A stretch of DNA of 26,721 nucleotides from Sphaerodactylus townsendi (lineage: Eukaryota): the NCBI RefSeq assembly GCF_021028975.2. It is one part of the record NC_059439.1 of this genome. One strand, 5' to 3'. How positions within the stretch are numbered: the stretch's first letter is position 1; every line of letters begins with the position of its first letter. Below the pieces are notes generated by a model. It searched no databases. It had not been told where the DNA came from and was given only the letters and a program-made list of their open reading frames with translations. Below are positions 2,783 through 26,275 of the stretch, one piece after another. A program made the position numbers and the translations under genes.

Positions 2783-3549
2783 TGCAGTCCATGTGGCACA
2801 CTGCACGGTGTACCGGCTGTCAAGCGCATGCAGCTGCCTCATAAGGATTCAGGCAGTTTGCTTCTTGGCTTGAGAACCTTGCTGGGTCACCATAAGTATT
2901 GATGGTGCGTTCCACCACCACCTTGTTAATAACATCTCACTGAGCCTCTATTAAGGTCCCAGGACATCTCCACCCCCTACCCTCTGTTGGCAACACAAGG
3001 CTGATGGATGAATGCCCGGCAGTTGCCCATCTTCCCTTTGATGTGCTCGTGAATGCTACTTACTAGGGTTGTTGCCAGTTAGAGATGGGCCTGGGACCTG
3101 CAGGAGATACCTCATGCAGTGACTCATCTGTTTCCTCCCTTTTTTGCAATGTACAAAAATATAATCGCTCTTCAGAGGGAGATCATATCTGGCGTTCTTT
3201 CCGGCAGCAGACTGGCAGCCACTCCAGCCAGTCAGTTCGAGACTGTGGATGATCTTTCTGTCACTGGCTGGGATGGCTCAGTGTGATCCCATTTCAAACC
3301 CTGATAGCTTTATGTTCTACTCGTGCTCTGCAACCAGGTGGGGCTTGGAGATCTTCAGAATTTGTAGCTGATCTTCAGACTACAAAGATCAGTAGCCTGG
3401 GAGAAAATGGCTGTTTTACAGTAGGCACTCTATGGCAGTTTACAGGTGCATACCCTGTAGAGGGCCCACCTCACCCTAAACCTTGTTGTCACCAGGTTCC
3501 ACTCACAAACCTTCAGAAGTTCTCCAACCCTAAGGTGATCATCCTAGAG

Positions 3550-3697
3550 CAGGGGTAGGGAACATGCGGCTCTCCAGATGTTCAGGAACTACAATTCCCA
3601 TCAGCCCCTACCAGCATGGCCAATTGGCCATGCTGACAGAGGCTGATGGGAATTGTAGTTCCTGAACATCTGGAGAGCCGCAGGTTCCCTACCCCTG
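3550..3697. mobile_element. Near-perfect palindromic hAT (Charlie-like) MITE
   Basis: CAGGGGTAGGGAAC...GTTCCCTACCCCTG, self-complementary around GGCCAATTGGCC. The flanks TCCTAGAG/GGCTAGAT fit the NNCTAGAN target preference. Confidence 0.85.
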
Positions 3698-3810
3698 GGC
3701 TAGATCTTAGTCCTGGGGTCTCTTTAAAAAATGGTTTAGGCCTAGAAAGTGTGATAATTATGGTTTCCTAGAGCATATAGACTAGAGAGTGTTTGTCCCA
3801 TCATTACTGA

Positions 3811-8141: not shown

Positions 8142-8833
8142 AATCCAGTTCTCTGGATTATAGTCCTCCACTAACCACTACATTCTGCTGACTGCAAAGA
8201 ACACTAGGATGATATTTATGAAATGCTTCGAATCCCGAAAGGAGTATATAATTTCTAAATGTTATTGTTTTGCAACTATTTAGATTTATAACTCAGCTCT
8301 TCCCCCTGTAAACACCCCCCCCAAATCTGTTTGCATAAAAATGTAGGCATATGGGTATAAAACAGGTGGTTTATTGCAAACAACCCAAGACAAATAATCA
8401 CAGACGATTCACGGACATGGAGGATCTTCAAACACGATCGCTGTTCTGCAGATGGCAGGAAGGTTGTGCACATTCCTCAGTCAAAAATGCAAACCTCTTT
8501 TGGACCGCGCAACTAGCTGATAATCCAGGAATCTCATGCAGATGCTAGCTGAATAGATCGGCCAATGATTTGTCCCACGGGCATATCCATAGTCTGTTGT
8601 AGCTTATCACTAACAAAGAAGGTTAGAAATACTCCGGAGACTACCCGAAAAATGTGGAATGTTATCGGCAGGAAGCTACCTCAATTGGTCACATCGTTAA
8701 AAAACAATCAGTTAAACATTTACAAATTATAGGCCCCTTCCGCATATGCAGAATAATGCACTTTCAATCCACTTTCACAATTGGCATGCTGTGTGGTTTC
8801 CGGGCTGTATGGCCGTGTTCTAGCAGCATTCTC

Positions 8834-8876
8834 TCCTGACGTTTCGCCTGCATCTGTGGCTGGCATCTTCAGAGGA
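8834..8876 (-). ncRNA. Minimal type I hammerhead ribozyme motif (mirror copy)
   Basis: Exact reverse complement of 8921-8963. Confidence 0.75.
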
Positions 8877-8920
8877 TCTGAAGATGAGGATCCTCTGAAG
8901 ATGCCAACCACAGATGAGGA

Positions 8921-8963
8921 TCCTCTGAAGATGCCAGCCACAGATGCAGGCGAAACGTCAGGA
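8921..8963 (+). ncRNA. Minimal type I hammerhead ribozyme motif
   Basis: TCCT-CTGAAGA-T-GCC-[13 nt]-GGC-GAAA-C-GTC-AGGA. It has the CUGANGA and GAAA boxes, stem I TCCT/AGGA, stem II GCC/GGC, a palindromic ACGT stem III and a GUC cleavage triplet ending at 8959. Confidence 0.75.
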
Positions 8964-10613
8964 GAGAATGCTGCTAGAACACGGCCAGACAGCCCGGAAA
9001 CCACACAGCACCCCAGTGATTCCGGCCATGCAAGCCTTCGACAATACACTTTCACAATTGTTTGCAAGTGGATTTTGCTCTTCCGCACAGTAAAATCCAG
9101 CTGCGGGGTGCATTGAACGTGGATTGAAAGTGCATTATTCCGCATGTGCGGAAGGAGCCTAGAATAGAATACTTTATTTACGGTCAATGACCAAATATGA
9201 AGGAACCTAAGAAAAGCACAGCGTTCCCCAGCCCATTTTCTAGCAATTGCTTTGAACATTCAATGCACTAATTGACATAAAATTTACATGGTTTAGTGCT
9301 AGACTAGAGGTGACTCCCTAACCCCCCCAAAAGTGCCAGGCAACTTCCCCAGATCGAGATTGAATGGGAAAGACAAGGAAGCGGTGGGAGGGCAAAATGG
9401 CGGCTCAGCTCGGGACGCTTCACAGCAGGAAAATCCATGCGTAAACTAAAAACCATGACAAGATCTCCCAGTGAAGCACAGCCACTGCGTAAGTAGTGCA
9501 TGTGTAACCCCCATGCTCAGAATGGGTTGACCCAGAAAGGGGTGGAGACTCAAAGCAGCAGAAGGCTGCAGAGCTCATGTAGTTTGGAGGAGACAAGGCT
9601 ACCAGACTCGGACCTTGGTTGTATAAGCCCTTAGCACCTTGTTAAGGTAACTGCAATGTTGTTGGGAACTACTGAAAAGGTAGTTGTTTATTTTTGCTAT
9701 GTTGTAAATGTTGGAGTTTATTGTTTCAGGGTTTCTTTTTGTGGTTGTAATGGGTGAGAGTTCTCCTGGAAACCTTCATCACGTTGAATCCTGTTCACCA
9801 AGCCCTTGGAGTCTTCAGGAGCCAACCCACTTGCAAAGAAGAATTGGACTTGGCAGTATCAGTAGACTGTAAATATAAGGACTTGAAAATGCAACCTGAA
9901 CAGGACCTTGAAGTGTGATGTTAAATGTTGATGTTTGATGTTATATGTTAAGAAAGTAAAGCATTTTGTTTTTAAAATTTGTTGTTGCAAACTCATTCCA
10001 AGTTCTGCCCCACAGAACCCACAGTTAGAGGTTACACATGCATACACGGGAACAGAGAGGATGACATGGATACTATTGAAACTCTAACTTACGGAATATC
10101 TAGTGTTTCCCTTGTTACAGAATGACATATTTTCTTCCTTTGTTTATGCTTATATTCATACTGCTCCTTTTCATACCCTTATTATCCATCACATTTTTAA
10201 AAAATCCCATCCTTCCTCCAATGAGCTCAGGACAGCACACACAGTCCTTCTCTGCTCTTTTCATTCTCACAACAACCCTGCGGAGTAGGTCACATGCAAC
10301 TCGTTCAGAATCCCCCCGTGAACATCGTGGCTTAAGCGAGGGCTTGAATTTTGTCCCCCACCCCAGTTTCAGAAAGCCAGTGACATCATTATAAATATTT
10401 TCTCGTAAAGCTTTGAATGTTTTGAAAAAGAAAGTCGTTCAGCTTTGTAGTGTAGACATGGTCACGGCGCCTCTCCAGAGGCCAAGTGTTTCATGCGAGG
10501 ATGAGGAAACAGTCCTCACAGACGGAATCCTGCGTCGAAAATTACAGTGAGTTGGTTAAAGAGGGGCTTAAATCTGGCACAGAAGGGTTGACCCATTGCC
10601 TGCCCTCTGGGTC

Positions 10614-11675
10614 TTAGTCAAGCCCATCGCAACCTCCTAGCGGCTGTTCTTCAAGGATCACAGCGGCCCCTGGCACGACCACCACTGAGTCTTTGGCCAA
10701 GTTTTTCAACGATGGAGTTCTCTTAGCCAGCCCCTCAGATGCTCCCTCAAAGAACTGGGCAATGAAGTTGGCCCCCGAGGTCTTTATGAGGTTCCCGGCA
10801 GCAAAGACGTAAAGGACAGGGTTGATGCTACTACTTAAGAAAGCCAAGGCCGTGGCTCCCGCTCTCCCGCTCTTCCAAGCCTGGCTTAGCTGATCAGCGG
10901 TCTTCCCTGACGCCATGTTTGATGCCACCTGGATCATGTTCACCACGTGATAGGGCAGCCACAGGACAACGAAGCAGATCACTATGGCAACAATGAGCTT
11001 CTCGGTCCGAGCCCCTTGCCTTCTCCTCACCCCCCTGAGGCGTATCAAGATGGCGGAGTAGCACCCGAGGATGATGGTGAATGGGATCACGAAGGCCACC
11101 ACCGTTTCTAGGGTGAAATGGAAGATGGCCAGGCCCGGCCTGGTGTGGCAGGGTTCACAGATATGATGACCCAGGAAGGGATCCTTCAACACTTGGCGGA
11201 AGAGGAAGGCTGGGGCGGAGAGCATGCTGGCGGCCAGCCAAATCCCTGTCAGGATCTTGACGACCAAGTGCTTCTTGCGGATGGCTTGGGAGAAGTAGGG
11301 CTTGTTGACCGCGAGGCACCGGTCCACGCTCATGAGCGTGATGATGAAGATGCTGGCGAACATGTTGACGCAGCAAATGTAGTACACGCCTTTGCAAATG
11401 GCCGCCCCGAATAGCCAGTTCTTGAAGGTGAGGAAGAGGATGAAGAAAGGCGTCAGGAGTAGCACCACCCCGTCGGCCACGGCCAAATTGAGCACCAGGA
11501 TGCAGGTGACCGAGCGGTGGCTCGGTTTCATCTTCCACAGGATACTCCAGATGACAAAGAAGTTCCCTGGGAGGCCGATCAGGGCGGCCAAGAGGAGGAA
11601 GACGATCCCTGCGACGCTGGAGGTTGGGGAACTCAGGAGGGTGCTGTTTCCTGAGGTTTGGTTGCAAGGGTTCAT
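10614..11675 (-). CDS. LTB4R2: Leukotriene B4 receptor 2-like class A GPCR (353 aa, single coding exon)
   Basis: Seven hydrophobic helices with GLPGN, LAVAD, DRC, FVIPF, LWLPY and NPVLY motifs. The segments FLLLAALIGLPGN, K-VYY-C, LET--AFV-PF and RAG-TALAF-SSS-NPVLYVF-AG resemble mammalian BLT2 more than BLT1. ATG at 11675 in GCCATCATG context. N-terminal sequons NQT and NST. Confidence 0.88.
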   Translation of the reverse strand: MNPCNQTSGNSTLLSSPTSSVAGIVFLLLAALIGLPGNFFVIWSILWKMKPSHRSVTCILVLNLAVADGVVLLLTPFFILFLTFKNWLFGAAICKGVYYICCVNMFASIFIITLMSVDRCLAVNKPYFSQAIRKKHLVVKILTGIWLAASMLSAPAFLFRQVLKDPFLGHHICEPCHTRPGLAIFHFTLETVVAFVIPFTIILGCYSAILIRLRGVRRRQGARTEKLIVAIVICFVVLWLPYHVVNMIQVASNMASGKTADQLSQAWKSGRAGATALAFLSSSINPVLYVFAAGNLIKTSGANFIAQFFEGASEGLAKRTPSLKNLAKDSVVVVPGAAVILEEQPLGGCDGLD

Positions 11676-11730: not shown

Positions 11731-12057
11731 TTTAGAAACACAATGCTGGAAGCCCCCCTCCACCTCCCAGTTCTGTGAATGGAACAAATTATATTATTTT
11801 CCCTTGAGTGAAGGCATTTGGCTTGTTTTTATTTTGTGTTGGCCTCCTTCTCACATTTCTCTGTCACCCTTCATCCAAGACATTCCAGGTGGAAGGCAAC
11901 ATTTTTCTCTCTTTCCATTTTAGTCTCTGTGAGGTGGTTGAGGCTGAGGTAAAGTTGCCAGCTTAGGGTGGGTAAATTCCTGGTGATTTTGGGGGTGGAG
12001 CTTGGGGAGGGGCAGGGTTTGGGGAGGGGAGAGTCTTCAGTGGGGTATAAGGTCATA

Positions 12058-12892
12058 GAACATAAGAACATAAGAACAAGCAAGATGGATCAGACCAGAG
12101 TCCATCTAGTCCAGCTCTCTGCTACTCACAGTGGCCCACCAGGTGCCATTGGGAGCTCACGTGCAGGATGGGAAAGCAATGGCCTTCTGCTGCTGCTGCT
12201 GCTCCCAAGTACCTGGTCTGTTAAGGCATTTGCAATCTCAGATCAAAGAGGATCAAGATTGGTAGCCATAGATCGACTTCTCCTCCATAAATCTGTCCAA
12301 ACCCCTTTTAAAGCTATCCAGGTGAGTGGCCATCACCACCTCCTGTGGCAGCATATTCCAAACACCAATCACACGTTGCGTGAAGAAGTGTTTCCTCTTA
12401 TTAGTCCTAATTCTTCCCCCCAGCATTTTTAAGTGGATGCCCCCTGGTTCTAGTATTGTGAGAAAGAGAGAAAAATTTCTCCCTGTCAACATTTTCTACC
12501 CCATGCATAATTTTATAGACTTCAATCATATCCCCCCTCAGACGTCTCCTCTCCAAACTAAAGAGTCCCAAACGCTGCAGCCTCTCCTCATAAGGAAGGT
12601 GCTCCAATCCTTCAATCATCCTCGTTGCCCTTCTCTGCACTTTTTCTATCTCCTCAATATCCTTTTTGAGATGTGGCGACCAGAACTGAACACAGTACTC
12701 CAAGTGCGGTCGCACCACTGCTTTATATAAGGGCATGACAATCTTTGCAGTTTTATTCTCAATTCCTTTCCTAATGATCCCCAGCATAGAGTTTGCCTTT
12801 TTCACAGCTGCCATGCATTGAGTTGACATTCCCATGGAACTATCAACTAAGACGCCCAAATCCCTTTCCTGGTCTGTGACTGATAGCACTGA
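12058..12892 (-). mobile_element. Young CR1 LINE 3' fragment (frameshifted ORF2 C-terminus), nested in an older GTTGCCA-type MITE (~11952-12940)
   Basis: ERDLGVLVD...AAVKKANSMLGII...LYKAVVRPHLEYCVQFWSPH...LERRRLRGDMIEVYKI. (TTCTTATG)n tail. Confidence 0.95.
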
Positions 12893-16335: not shown

Positions 16336-16656
16336 GGGTCCCGGGAAGGAGGAGGGGTGTGGCTGGACCTTGGCGCAACGTGTGCACGCCACCCAGGCAG
16401 GCCTTGGCCCAGGCACTGCACGCACGTTGCGCCGAGGCCCAGCTGTACCCCGTCTCCTTCCCTGAAGTGTGGGGGTGATTTTTCTGCCTTTATGTGACTC
16501 CCATGTGGGCACTTGAGGCGTTTGTATCCAGATGTCCGCATGGCAGCTACGCCACTGGCATACACCACATAGGTTACGTCTAGGTGCATCATGTACAAGG
16601 CAGAAGGATTGGATCCACCAAGCAAATACCCACCTGTGCCCGTTCCCTTGTGTTCC

Positions 16657-17421
16657 ATGGGAATGTCAACTCAATGCATGGCAGCTGTGAAAAAGGCAAA
16701 CTCTCTGCTGGGGATCATTAGGAAAGGAATTGAGAATAAAACTGCAAGGATTGTCATGCCCTTATATAAAGCAGTGGTGCGACCGCACTTGGAGTACTGT
16801 GTTCAGTTCTGGTCGCCACATCTCAAAAAGGATATTGTAGAAAAAGTGCAGAGAAGGGCAACGAGGATGATTGAGGGACTAGAGCGCCTTCCCTATGAGG
16901 AGAGGCTGCAGCGTTTGGGACTCTTTAGTTTGGAGAGGAGACGTCTGAGGGGGGATAAGATTGAAGTCTATAAAATTATGCATGGGGTAGAAAATGTTGA
17001 CAGAGAGAAATTTTTCTCTCTTTCTCACAATACTAGAACCAGGGGGCATCCATTGAAAATGCTGGGGGGAAGAATTAGGACTAATAACAGGAAACACTTC
17101 TTCACGCAACATGATTGGTGTTTGGAATATGCTGCCACAGGAGGTGGTGATGGCCCCTAACCTGGATAGCTTTAAAAAGGGCTTGGACAGATTTACGGAG
17201 GAGAAGTCGATTTATAGCTACCCATCTTGATCCCCCTTGATCTGAGATTGCAAATGCCTTAACAGTCCAGGTGATCGGGAGCAGCAGCAGCAGCAGGCCC
17301 TTGCTTTCCCATCCTGCATGTGAGCTCCCAAAGGCACCTGGTGGGCCACTACGAGTAGCAGAGCGCTGGACTAGATGGACTCTGGTCTGATCCAGCTGGC
17401 TTGTTCTTATGTTCTTATGTT
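16657..17421 (+). mobile_element. Young CR1 LINE 3' fragment flanked by a 34-bp direct repeat
   Basis: ORF2 C-terminus near-identical to the 12058-12892 copy. Tail TTCTTATGTTCTTATGTT. Repeat at 16623-16656 and 17422-17455. Confidence 0.95.
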
Positions 17422-17991
17422 CAAATACCCACCTGTGCCCGTTCCCTTGTGTTCCCAGTGTAACTGCTAGATGCGGAATCAAACCATCAAACAGTGTTAG
17501 ATCAATGTCCTACTGTTTCCATTATAAAAGCCTATTTGATAGTGACTTTTATCCTTCCCCTCCTGGTTTTTGTGTTAGTGTACGGGGGTTGGATACAGCC
17601 ACTGAGTCATTCTTACAGAAGGATCCGCAAAGGTAGCTCAGCTGAGTCAGTCAGTTTGGAGCAACCGAGGACAGGGCTGAGAAGAGACCGTGGCCTGCGT
17701 CACAAAGCAATTCTTCCATCATTAGGACGGGCGAGGAGTGGAGACCCTGCTGAGGCTGTCTCATTTTCCAGACATTGTCAGTAGGTTCAGAAGGCTTCAT
17801 TTTATCAAAGTGGGCTTTTGTGCACTGGAAAAGCAAACAACTCAGAAAATTGCNNNNNNNNNNNNNNNNNNNNNNNNNNNNNNNNNNNNNNNNNNNNNNN
17901 NNNNNNNNNNNNNNNNNNNNNNNNNNNNNNNNNNNNNNNNNNNNNNNNNNNNNNNNNNNNNNNNNNNNNNNNNNNNNNNNNNNNNNNNNNN

Positions 17992-19967: not shown

Positions 19968-20247
19968 GTGCACACTTTAGATCTCACCTGCAGTAGGGTG
20001 AGGGTAGGTAAGGTTGCAGATTTGGGGAGGTGGACCCACTGGGGACAGAAGAGCGGGAGGTAGACAGTTCTGCTGCAGGGAGGGGCTGCCGCATAGCAGG
20101 AGAGCGCTTGTTTTGCCTGCAGAGGTTCCTAAATTCAATCTCTGCCCCCTTCAGGTGGTACAGTTTCAGGTGGTCAGTGCTGGAGAATGAAACCTCAGGG
20201 GAGCAGTTGCTGTTCAGAGAAGGGACTGATGTATAGGATGTGACTCA

Positions 20248-20764
20248 GGTCGATTCCGCACTTGCATTTATCGACCTAAGTTCGAGCTGCGTTCGGCCTA
20301 AGTGCTCCGCACAACCACTGGGATCGACGTGGTTTTGTACCAGCTTCGCTCCGTGTAACGGTCAAATTTCCGACTCCAGTTGGGAACTACTACTTTTTCA
20401 GGGAACCACGCTCGAACTCAGCTCGATTCCAGTAAAGTGCGGAATCTCTGGTGCCAGGAGTCCCCCATTCAGCCAATCACAGCTGAGTGTTTCGGGCATG
20501 CTACAGCCTAGGCCAATCAAAAAACGCCACCTTCGTCCCTCCATTCCTGTGGCAGTTTTTTTAATAACGTGTGTGGGGATAGACGGAACATGGCCGTAGA
20601 ACAGTAGCCAATCGGAACGGAGCGGCGAAGAGGTACAGGATGGTTCTGCCCTCCGAGCTGGGATCAAGCTGGTTGCAGTGGGGAACAACAATGGCTTCGA
20701 CCTAGGTCAGTACCCTTCTCAGGGAACTGGGTTGAACCTATTTTACTCATGTGCGGAATCGCCC
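20248..20764. mobile_element. Non-autonomous PIF/Harbinger-like element, CpG-rich
   Basis: TIR GGTCGATTCCGCAC / GTGCGGAATCGCCC. 3-bp TSD TCA on both sides. Shares the TTCCGCAC core with the 140-bp MITEs. Confidence 0.8.
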
Positions 20765-21067
20765 TCAGTGTCAAACAGTGTCAAATAGTGTCTTAGTCTT
20801 CATTCAGCACCCCATTTGAGCCAATCCCTGTTTCTGAGACGATCTCCTGTACAAACCCCGTTGGAAGAAACCACAACTTTCCTAATAATTTCAATTCACC
20901 TAGCCCCACTTTCAATAGTATGCACGTGTGTTTGGCCTTCCACCACCTGCACGGAAATGTTTTGGGCCAGCCCTGTGTGCTAATGTCCTCCTGCTTTGGT
21001 GTGGGGTGAGGTGAACTCTCAAACCTGAGTCATGGGGCTTCTATAGAAAACCCCAGAGAGAAGACCT

Positions 21068-21823: not shown

Positions 21824-21944
21824 GGTTCTGGTGGGTTTTCTGGACTGTGTGGCCATGGTCTGGTGGAGATCCACCAGACCATGGCCACACAGCCTGGAAA
21901 ACCCACCAGAACCAGTTGAATCTGACCGTGAAAGCCTTCGACAA
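21824..21944. mobile_element. Short palindromic Penelope-like insertion, second subfamily
   Basis: 44-bp inverted arms 21824-21867 and 21870-21913. Same AAAGCCTTCGACAA terminus. ACAAGTATTGAATC is repeated at 21810-21823 and 21941-21954. Confidence 0.75.
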
Positions 21945-21970: not shown

Positions 21971-22348
21971 AACATAAGAACATAAGAACAAGCCAGCTAG
22001 ATCAGACCAGAGTCCATCTAGTCCAGCTCTTTGCTACTCGCAGTGGCCCACCAGGTGCCTTTGGGAGCTCACATGCAGGATGTGAAAGCAATGGCCTTCT
22101 GCTGCTGCTGCTGCTGCTCCCGAGCACCTGGACTGTTAAGGCATTTGCAATCTCAGATCAAAGAGGATCAAGATTGGTAGCCATAAATCAACTTCTCCTC
22201 CATAAATCTATCCAAGCCCCTTTTAAAGCTATCCAGGTTAGTGGCCATCACTACTTCCTGTGGCAGCATAAGAAGTGTTTCCTTTTATTAGTCCTAATTC
22301 TTCCCCCCAGCATTTTCAATGTATGCCCCCTGGTTCTAGTATTGTGAG
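21971..22348 (-). mobile_element. CR1 3' fragment nested in the tail of a Sauria-like SINE
   Basis: Near-identical to 12059-12460, with a 28-bp internal deletion. Confidence 0.92.
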
Positions 22349-26003: not shown

Positions 26004-26275
26004 ATTGTCGAAGGCTTTCACAGCCGGATTCAACTGGTTCTGGTGGGTTTTCCGGGCTGTGTGGCCGTGGTCTGGTGGACCACGGTTTGATTTTCCCATT
26101 CTGCCACTTAGCTGTGGAGGCTTATCTGGGGAATTCAGATTAACCTATGCACTCCCACACACGCCAGCTGGGTGACCTTGGGCTAGTCACAGCTCTTCGG
26201 AGCTCTCTCAGCCCCACCTACCTCACAGCGTATTTGTTGTGAGCGGGGAAGGGAAAGGAGTTCGTAAGCCCCTTC
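26004..26275. mobile_element. Penelope-like terminal fragment (26004-26079) fused to a Squam3-like SINE body (26081-26275)
   Basis: ATTGTCGAAGGCTTTCAC...TCTGGTGGA matches the reverse complement of 21870-21944. The sequence then continues as SINE from the B box. Confidence 0.75.

Follow-up and report, generated by a model that had tools for sequence, protein, structure and literature searches.

A 263-bp insert with opposed hammerhead motifs in Sphaerodactylus townsendi: very probably a short, ordinary Poseidon insertion

In a window of 26,721 nucleotides (the whole stretch of DNA that was analysed) from Sphaerodactylus townsendi, we studied a hairpin-shaped insert that carries hammerhead motifs on both strands. 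The insert very probably consists of two head-to-head ORF starts of the Penelope-like element (PLE) Poseidon, one with and one without a tail, which likely arrived in one insertion event and have likely been inert since. We therefore regard 8784-9046 as a real, ordinary short Poseidon insertion, and not as a new self-copying ribozyme element. The identity of the arms, the one-sided tail, the 14-bp target site duplication and the uncut ribozyme sequence in both arms were observed directly.

Anatomy of the insert and Poseidon origin of its arms

The host element and the parts of the insert are as follows.

8732-9161, no strand assigned: hairpin-shaped host MITE, split by the insert
8770-8783, plus strand: left copy of the 14-bp target site duplication (direct-repeat comparison)
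8784-8786, no strand assigned: three extra bases at the tail-less end, forming a 6-bp palindrome with the next three bases
8787-8878, minus strand: inverted arm without tail, Poseidon element -12 to +80 (A of ATG = +1)
8838-8872, minus strand: minimal type I hammerhead of the left arm (descriptor)
8879-8886, plus strand: first stutter, an 8-base restart that folds back onto 8864-8872 (DNA hairpin, -8.8 kcal/mol)
8887-8916, plus strand: second stutter, a tandem repeat of 8917-8946 (30 bp, one mismatch) that lacks the GAAA half
8917-9010, plus strand: direct arm, Poseidon element about -14 to +80
8921-8963, plus strand: minimal type I hammerhead of the direct arm (stem I 8921-8924/8960-8963, core 8925-8931, stem II 8933-8951, ACGU 8955-8958)
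8931-9046, plus strand: Poseidon ORF start, first 38 codons, aligned to residues 1-39 of protein P0018
9011-9046, plus strand: 36-bp tail, on one arm only, with its end at +116 (tail as defined in the available text of PMC8557442, PMC3846280 and PMC11167929)
9047-9060, plus strand: right copy of the 14-bp target site duplication (direct-repeat comparison)

The 14-bp direct repeats enclosed 263 bp (8784-9046). Once this insert is removed, a hairpin-shaped MITE of about 155 bp closes without a seam; about five more copies of it lie within the window. The arms 8787-8878 and 8919-9010 (92 bp) were complementary at 91 of 92 positions. The longest exact inverted stretch was 69 bp, as compared with at most 14 bp in 200 base shuffles. 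The predicted hairpin fold of the insert reached -205.8 kcal/mol (z = -22), and none of 200 shuffles folded as well. The earlier note on this DNA had described the insert, its duplication and its nesting in a MITE, as well as the arms with one mismatch and stuttered partial cores between them. The direct repeats and the restored MITE confirmed the former, the mismatch was placed at 8809/8988, and the stuttered cores were found at 8878-8886 and 8887-8916. Given that several paralogous joints reach position 8881, CAG may be the native reading immediately 5' of the pivot and would be a putative splice acceptor.

A hammerhead descriptor run over both strands of the whole window yielded exactly two motifs, plus 8925-8959 and minus 8872-8838, that is, one complete motif per strand. 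The pairs of stems I and II were confirmed letter by letter, and stem III is reduced to the palindrome ACGU. Both motifs show the core CUGANGA, GAAA, an NUH cut site, stems I and II and the palindromic stem III remnant of minimal type I hammerheads, the type to which the earlier note had assigned them. Its claim of a complete hammerhead in each arm stood as far as the presence of both motifs goes; these are complete in the sense of the minimal type, which needs a partner. The Rfam hammerhead models that it had proposed as a check gave no hammerhead family among 14 matches at E ≤ 1 or 5 at E ≤ 10, presumably because the motif lacks stem III. The Rfam matches were hairpin-shaped miRNA look-alikes below the gathering scores, alike in shape only, and a reading of the insert as a miRNA gene was considered and rejected.

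The frame 8931-9050 matched the N-terminus of P0018 in a pairwise comparison (E = 1e-14, 26 of 39 residues identical). P0018 is an Anolis carolinensis protein of 836 amino acids with an RT domain by Pfam; a GVY..YIG motif near its C-terminus was read by eye in the alignment, GIY-YIG having no Pfam match. It was reached through a chain of searches, in which all relatives of the arm ORF were drawn from organisms other than the source. Phmmer with the 40-residue frame returned 11 matches, none with an RT domain; a profile of six sequences returned six matches, P0014 among them; and P0014 as the query led to seven longer matches, five of them with RT. Two phmmer matches, P0004 and P0006, look like chance matches. 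A single-sequence homolog search with the 40-residue frame gave no match among six candidates, the exact 38-base motif had no occurrence in metagenome contigs, and neither of the two matches to the peptide patterns in viral contigs was confirmed. L001, the sole pass among 125 candidates of a metagenome peptide scan, was rejected as a chance match inside a bacterial gene without a hammerhead.

At the nucleotide level, the Methods section of PMC11167929 gives a Poseidon_Ac RNA to which 8922-9046 could be aligned gap-free, with 106 of 125 letters alike (by eye, hand count). The ribozyme core contains the ATG at 8931, with C3 and G8 upstream of this start codon, and the predicted cut after 8959 falls 26 bases past the ATG triplet. 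This layout is that of Poseidon_Ac in the available sections of PMC11167929, where the ORF starts at stem II, C3 and G8 stand before the start codon and the cut lies 26 bases downstream. According to the same sections, RT mainly starts at bases 111-118 of the ORF, and the tail lies between two start sites. The long-arm end (+116) falls inside the published priming site (+111 to +118), and the short-arm end (+80) leaves a 36-base tail; a second RT start site at about +80 is assigned from the tail length only. Homology to an ORF with RT plus GIY-YIG at its C-terminus, a hammerhead over the start codon and an inverted truncated copy with a tail at one end were thus found together. The Penelope-like origin suggested earlier was borne out by the P0018 match and the Poseidon_Ac alignment.

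Poseidon_Ac (PAc) of Anolis carolinensis, Penelope/Poseidon clade, is the closest system for comparison (PMC11167929, in the parts available; P0018). It shares with the insert the ORF start (about 85% of bases by eye), the hammerhead over the start codon with the cut 26 bases after it, a 3' end inside the RT start region and an optional tail. Unlike Poseidon_Ac, the insert belongs to another family, about 15% diverged, with other bases just 5' of stem I and an A-A mismatch in stem II. It also carries no RT or endonuclease, being merely an inverted pair of 5'-truncated ends.

Copies in the window and joints in contigs

Three further Poseidon copies were located in the window.

778-1517, no strand assigned: second inverted copy, same subfamily, with a 13-bp duplication, a tail on the left arm and a GGATC pivot at 1423
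21824-21940, no strand assigned: third inverted copy, second subfamily, with a 12-14-bp duplication, a tail on the right arm and no hammerhead
26004-26079, minus strand: single arm with tail, second subfamily, no hammerhead

The Poseidon family makes up about 2.6% of the window. All three inverted copies have one tail, a 12-14-bp duplication and a pivot at GATC. In two of the three the pivot lies just 5' of the ribozyme (GGATC), and the three junctions are all different. The junction of 778-1517 has one extra base (A) and no stutter. In this copy, C3 and the 5' strand of stem I are missing from the right arm, and an N run and a different repeat split the left arm; this repeat, 1142-1414, is similar to 2532-2589, and we take it to be the 3' end of an L2-type LINE. 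The pivot of 21824-21940, placed from a contig loose end at 8963, falls some 10 bases downstream of the cut, which leaves this copy with no ribozyme. The second subfamily is about 80% alike; its two copies, 21824-21940 and 26004-26079, share almost the same truncation point, which lies downstream of the cut site. Each of the three inverted copies has a duplication whose first 3-4 bases match the end of the element tail (9047-9049, 774-777 and 21941-21944). This match is a possible priming microhomology, although the available text of the Anolis Poseidon study describes priming without homology (PMC11167929).

Among other repeats, hairpin or inverted-end elements were noted at 3544-3703 (160 bp) and 20244-20765 (about 520 bp, with MITE-like ends). 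Three copies of one LINE-like 3' end, presumably CR1-like, lie at 12051-12840, 16652-17429 and 21971-22348; two of these flank the 5' region of a receptor-like gene in inverted orientation. A search of the DNA for tRNA genes found none.

To place the insert in its family, the contigs of 4 of 20 listed sequencing runs (organisms A, A, B and C) were aligned to 8450-9450 at 88% likeness. Summed contig depth on the arms reached about ten million in run X1, as compared with 60-73 on the flanks, and across the four runs and three organisms arm depth was about 100,000 times flank depth. Although summed contig depth is no copy number, these values show that the family is very large and dispersed in each of the three organisms. 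Over the spacer, X1 depth was 25,022 at 8888, relative to a single-copy level of 60 (about 400-fold) and to 3.7 million at 8988. The spacer excess over the flanks indicates that similar stutter junctions recur, and the hairpin at 8784-9046 may have siblings.

The contig joints gave a view of these junctions. Of 27 rows listed (15 + 12; a further 1528 and 788 exist), nine joined the left arm to the right arm; nine MITE rows, seven head-to-tail rows and two element-to-MITE rows were set aside. The nine head-to-head joints, from paralogous copies, had nine different junctions. One arm ended between -2 and -17 in eight of these nine listed joints, while the partner end ranged from -12 to +63. Since element sequence 5' of about -15 is absent from the window, copies that extend further upstream appear as loose ends, which biases this count.

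Some joints are worth describing separately. Joints 8868>8958 and 8876>8958 can be read as an arm that starts at the cut product (8960), with 8881>8961 one base off (runs X1, X3 and X4); microhomology of 2-4 bases explains them equally. Joint 8881>8811 (8881>8986 on the opposite strand) corresponds to a head-to-tail repeat of about 74 bases that holds the hammerhead. It was strong in the organism A runs, weak in X6 and absent in X4, and an array of this kind might allow a dimer ribozyme to assemble in cis, in the manner of a retrozyme. In three organisms, joints 9012>9047 and 9013>9047 connect element ends without the tail to this very MITE position at loci other than the insert; MITE position 9047 may be favoured as a target. 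Further joints bypass the insert and most likely stem from other MITE copies.

Predicted proteins carried the same element ends. The N-terminus of P0014 is the peptide of the antisense arm (12 of 14 residues identical, same end point), followed by a long Poseidon ORF, and P0010 was called across a fold-back with another junction. In P0009 the Poseidon ORF start was called as the N-terminus of a caspase-domain protein, and in P0015-P0017 as the C-terminus of Pogona CCDC170 isoforms. These fusions are either gene-call artefacts or exonised element ends.

Origin of the inverted arrangement

An inverted 5'-truncated copy next to a direct copy, with a 30-40-bp tail on one end, is the layout of EN+ PLEs in the accessible parts of PMC8557442 and PMC3846280. 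The rotifer examples in the latter have inverted pLTRs, a 31-bp tail, 8-10-bp duplications and junction palindromes. The insert shares with this unit (PMC8557442, fig. 2 legend; PMC3846280) the inverted and direct copies, the tail, the junction palindrome and the duplication. It differs in being extremely short, both copies stopping within about 15 bases of the ribozyme, in its two spacer stutters and in its 14-bp duplication, as compared with 8-10 bp in the rotifer examples.

For the single insertion event, we propose a sequence of steps. The RT-endonuclease of the element would have cut the two strands with a 14-bp stagger. From each nick, a cDNA was likely started at one of the element's two internal sites (+116 and about +80), and the synthesis of both would have broken off early, close to the GATC immediately 5' of the ribozyme. 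Of the two cDNAs, the longer may then have slipped back twice at GATG microhomologies to give the stutters, although which spacer bases were templated is a guess. Finally, the two cDNA ends would have been joined through a few matching bases. The same letters fit equally well with a single cDNA that folds back at GGATC and then switches template. LINE-1-type twin priming on one RNA was rejected, since the two arms copy the same region. The Poseidon_Ac protein nicks and extends both strands in vitro, is a predicted dimer and has uncut RNA as its main substrate, according to the available text of PMC11167929. The sections at hand of PMC3846280 favour self-priming on an antisense template, contrary to two-nick priming, and no two-nick or twin priming for Penelope elements was found in one search of mostly open-access literature.

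The first alternative is a variant of the same explanation, from which it differs in the pivot mechanism only. Here, an ordinary Poseidon scar would have a pivot programmed by sequence: a short RNA or a strong RT stop lies near -12 to -17, and the palindromic GATC folds the cDNA back. We give it an appreciable, though less than even, chance. The arm end between -2 and -17 in eight of the nine listed joints, the GATC pivot of all three inverted window copies and the stop of P0014 at the same place point in this direction. In addition, 8879-8886 is an exact fold-back product, and the available part of PMC3846280 reads junction palindromes as self-priming. However, the end count is subject to the bias described above, the unextended cDNA end forms no stable hairpin (-0.2 kcal/mol), and fold-back alone leaves the two fixed outer ends (+80 to +83 and +116) unexplained. 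The common inversion point of the earlier note thus survived as a preferred stop 5' of the ribozyme (two of three window copies, eight of nine listed joints), but not as a fixed junction, since the partner ends vary. Within the listed joints, the question that it had posed, whether the inversion point is fixed across copies, found the same divided answer, with the preferred stop on one side and nine different junctions on the other.

It is improbable that the insert represents a non-autonomous hairpin family able to propagate itself, whether the Poseidon protein reinserts the fold-back whole or the MITE carries it along. This reading could draw on the two window copies that pivot at the same GGATC, on the 400-fold spacer depth, on the intact look of the MITE ends and on the existence of non-autonomous PLE derivatives (PMC8557442 and bioRxiv 10.64898/2026.07.22.740005, as far as available). 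For such a family one junction would be expected, but all nine listed joints differ, as do all three window copies, 778-1517 having an extra A and no stutter. Spacer depth in X1 was less than 1 in 100 of arm depth, and the C at 9031 is private to the 8784-9046 copy, 99% of the depth reading A. Furthermore, 21824-21940 has the same layout without a ribozyme, and P0014 carries the inverted end before a long ORF. The varying partner ends (-12 to +63), the ribozyme-free pivot and P0014 together make the separate family advanced in the earlier note unlikely. A search of mostly open-access literature found no paper on a separate fold-back hammerhead family.

An assembly artefact, namely a fold-back chimera of a high-copy repeat, is very improbable: the locus is spanned by none of the contigs from the four runs and such structures trouble assemblies (PMC8557442, available text), but the clean 14-bp duplication restores the MITE, the tail is on one side only, the arms differ by one mismatch and two more window copies have the same anatomy.

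Opposed ribozyme motifs and the neighbouring gene

In the sections of PMC4209133 available (2014), metazoan PLEs carry minimal type I hammerheads, dual motifs on opposite strands and 100-700 bp apart are reported from Schistosoma, and a lone minimal motif did not cleave. The motifs of the insert resemble these hammerheads in the core boxes, the extra base between 9 and 10.1, the G10.1-C11.1 pair, the palindromic 15.2-16.2 and the missing stem III loop. They differ in being about 50 bases apart and in the short stem II (3 bp, mismatch, 2 bp). Like non-LTR retrozymes (PMC7229834 and bioRxiv 10.64898/2026.07.22.740005, in part), the insert is non-coding and PLE-derived and has a type I hammerhead. 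Unlike these head-to-tail elements, which hold at least two complete motifs on one strand, it is arranged head-to-head with one complete motif per strand, and a retrozyme assignment was rejected on this ground. Both the paired opposite-strand hammerheads and the inverted copy with a one-sided tail are therefore layouts already described in the available text of these sources.

Because of the head-to-head order, either strand transcribes the antisense arm first. Forcing the ribozyme fold (stems I and II, open core) raised the energy by 43.6 kcal/mol on the plus strand and by 72.1 kcal/mol on the minus strand above the hairpin, in calculations that ignore proteins. The cost was 36.4 kcal/mol for a plus-strand RNA terminating directly after stem I and 5-10 kcal/mol for a transcript whose start lies in the spacer. 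With one complete motif per strand, a dimer in cis is impossible, and the predicted dimer fold in trans had -17.3 kcal/mol, as compared with -28.4 kcal/mol for the best co-fold. The ribozyme motifs are thus predicted to be locked inactive inside the hairpin, and read-through RNA is predicted to form a 92-bp double-stranded hairpin without cleavage. The competition between cleavage and hairpin formation envisaged in the earlier note is not supported by this order, motif number and fold cost.

The neighbouring gene provides the context for read-through.

10614-11675, minus strand: LTB4-receptor-like ORF, context neighbour

Its stop codon lies about 1.57 kb from the insert, in agreement with the 1.6 kb given earlier; the ORF, called BLT2-like earlier, may be either BLT1 or BLT2, and its best solved-structure matches are BLT1. 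Three AATAAA hexamers (9717, 9687 and 9173) stand between the stop codon and the insert. A functional locus, in which the minus-strand hammerhead cuts read-through RNA of this gene, is extremely improbable. The left-arm motif does have the orientation of the gene; its core is intact, and it sits 1.7 kb beyond the stop codon. However, the antisense arm is made first, the ribozyme fold is most costly on this very strand, no second complete minus-strand motif exists and the hexamers precede the motif. The lone minimal motif that did not cleave (PMC4209133, available text) argues in the same direction. The order of the arms, the fold cost and the single motif per strand make the cutting of read-through transcripts, as the earlier note had proposed, unlikely.

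As one of a very large dispersed family, the locus is of little individual weight. Its long hairpin could feed small-RNA silencing of the Poseidon family. As a class, such copies could be used to test the origin of inverted pLTRs and tails, an open question in the available text of PMC8557442 and PMC3846280. They could also test hammerhead cutting in vivo: the Anolis ribozyme cut only with its protein, and cutting in vivo was not seen in RNA-seq (PMC11167929, in part). It is conceivable, though rather doubtful, that tiny inverted pairs form a fossil record of the Penelope insertion reaction, in which two nicks would prime two cDNAs from two start sites, the majority would stop at one fixed position 5' of the ribozyme, and a subset would start exactly at the hammerhead cut. 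If this were true, arms starting at the cut would be genomic evidence of in vivo cleavage by vertebrate PLE hammerheads.
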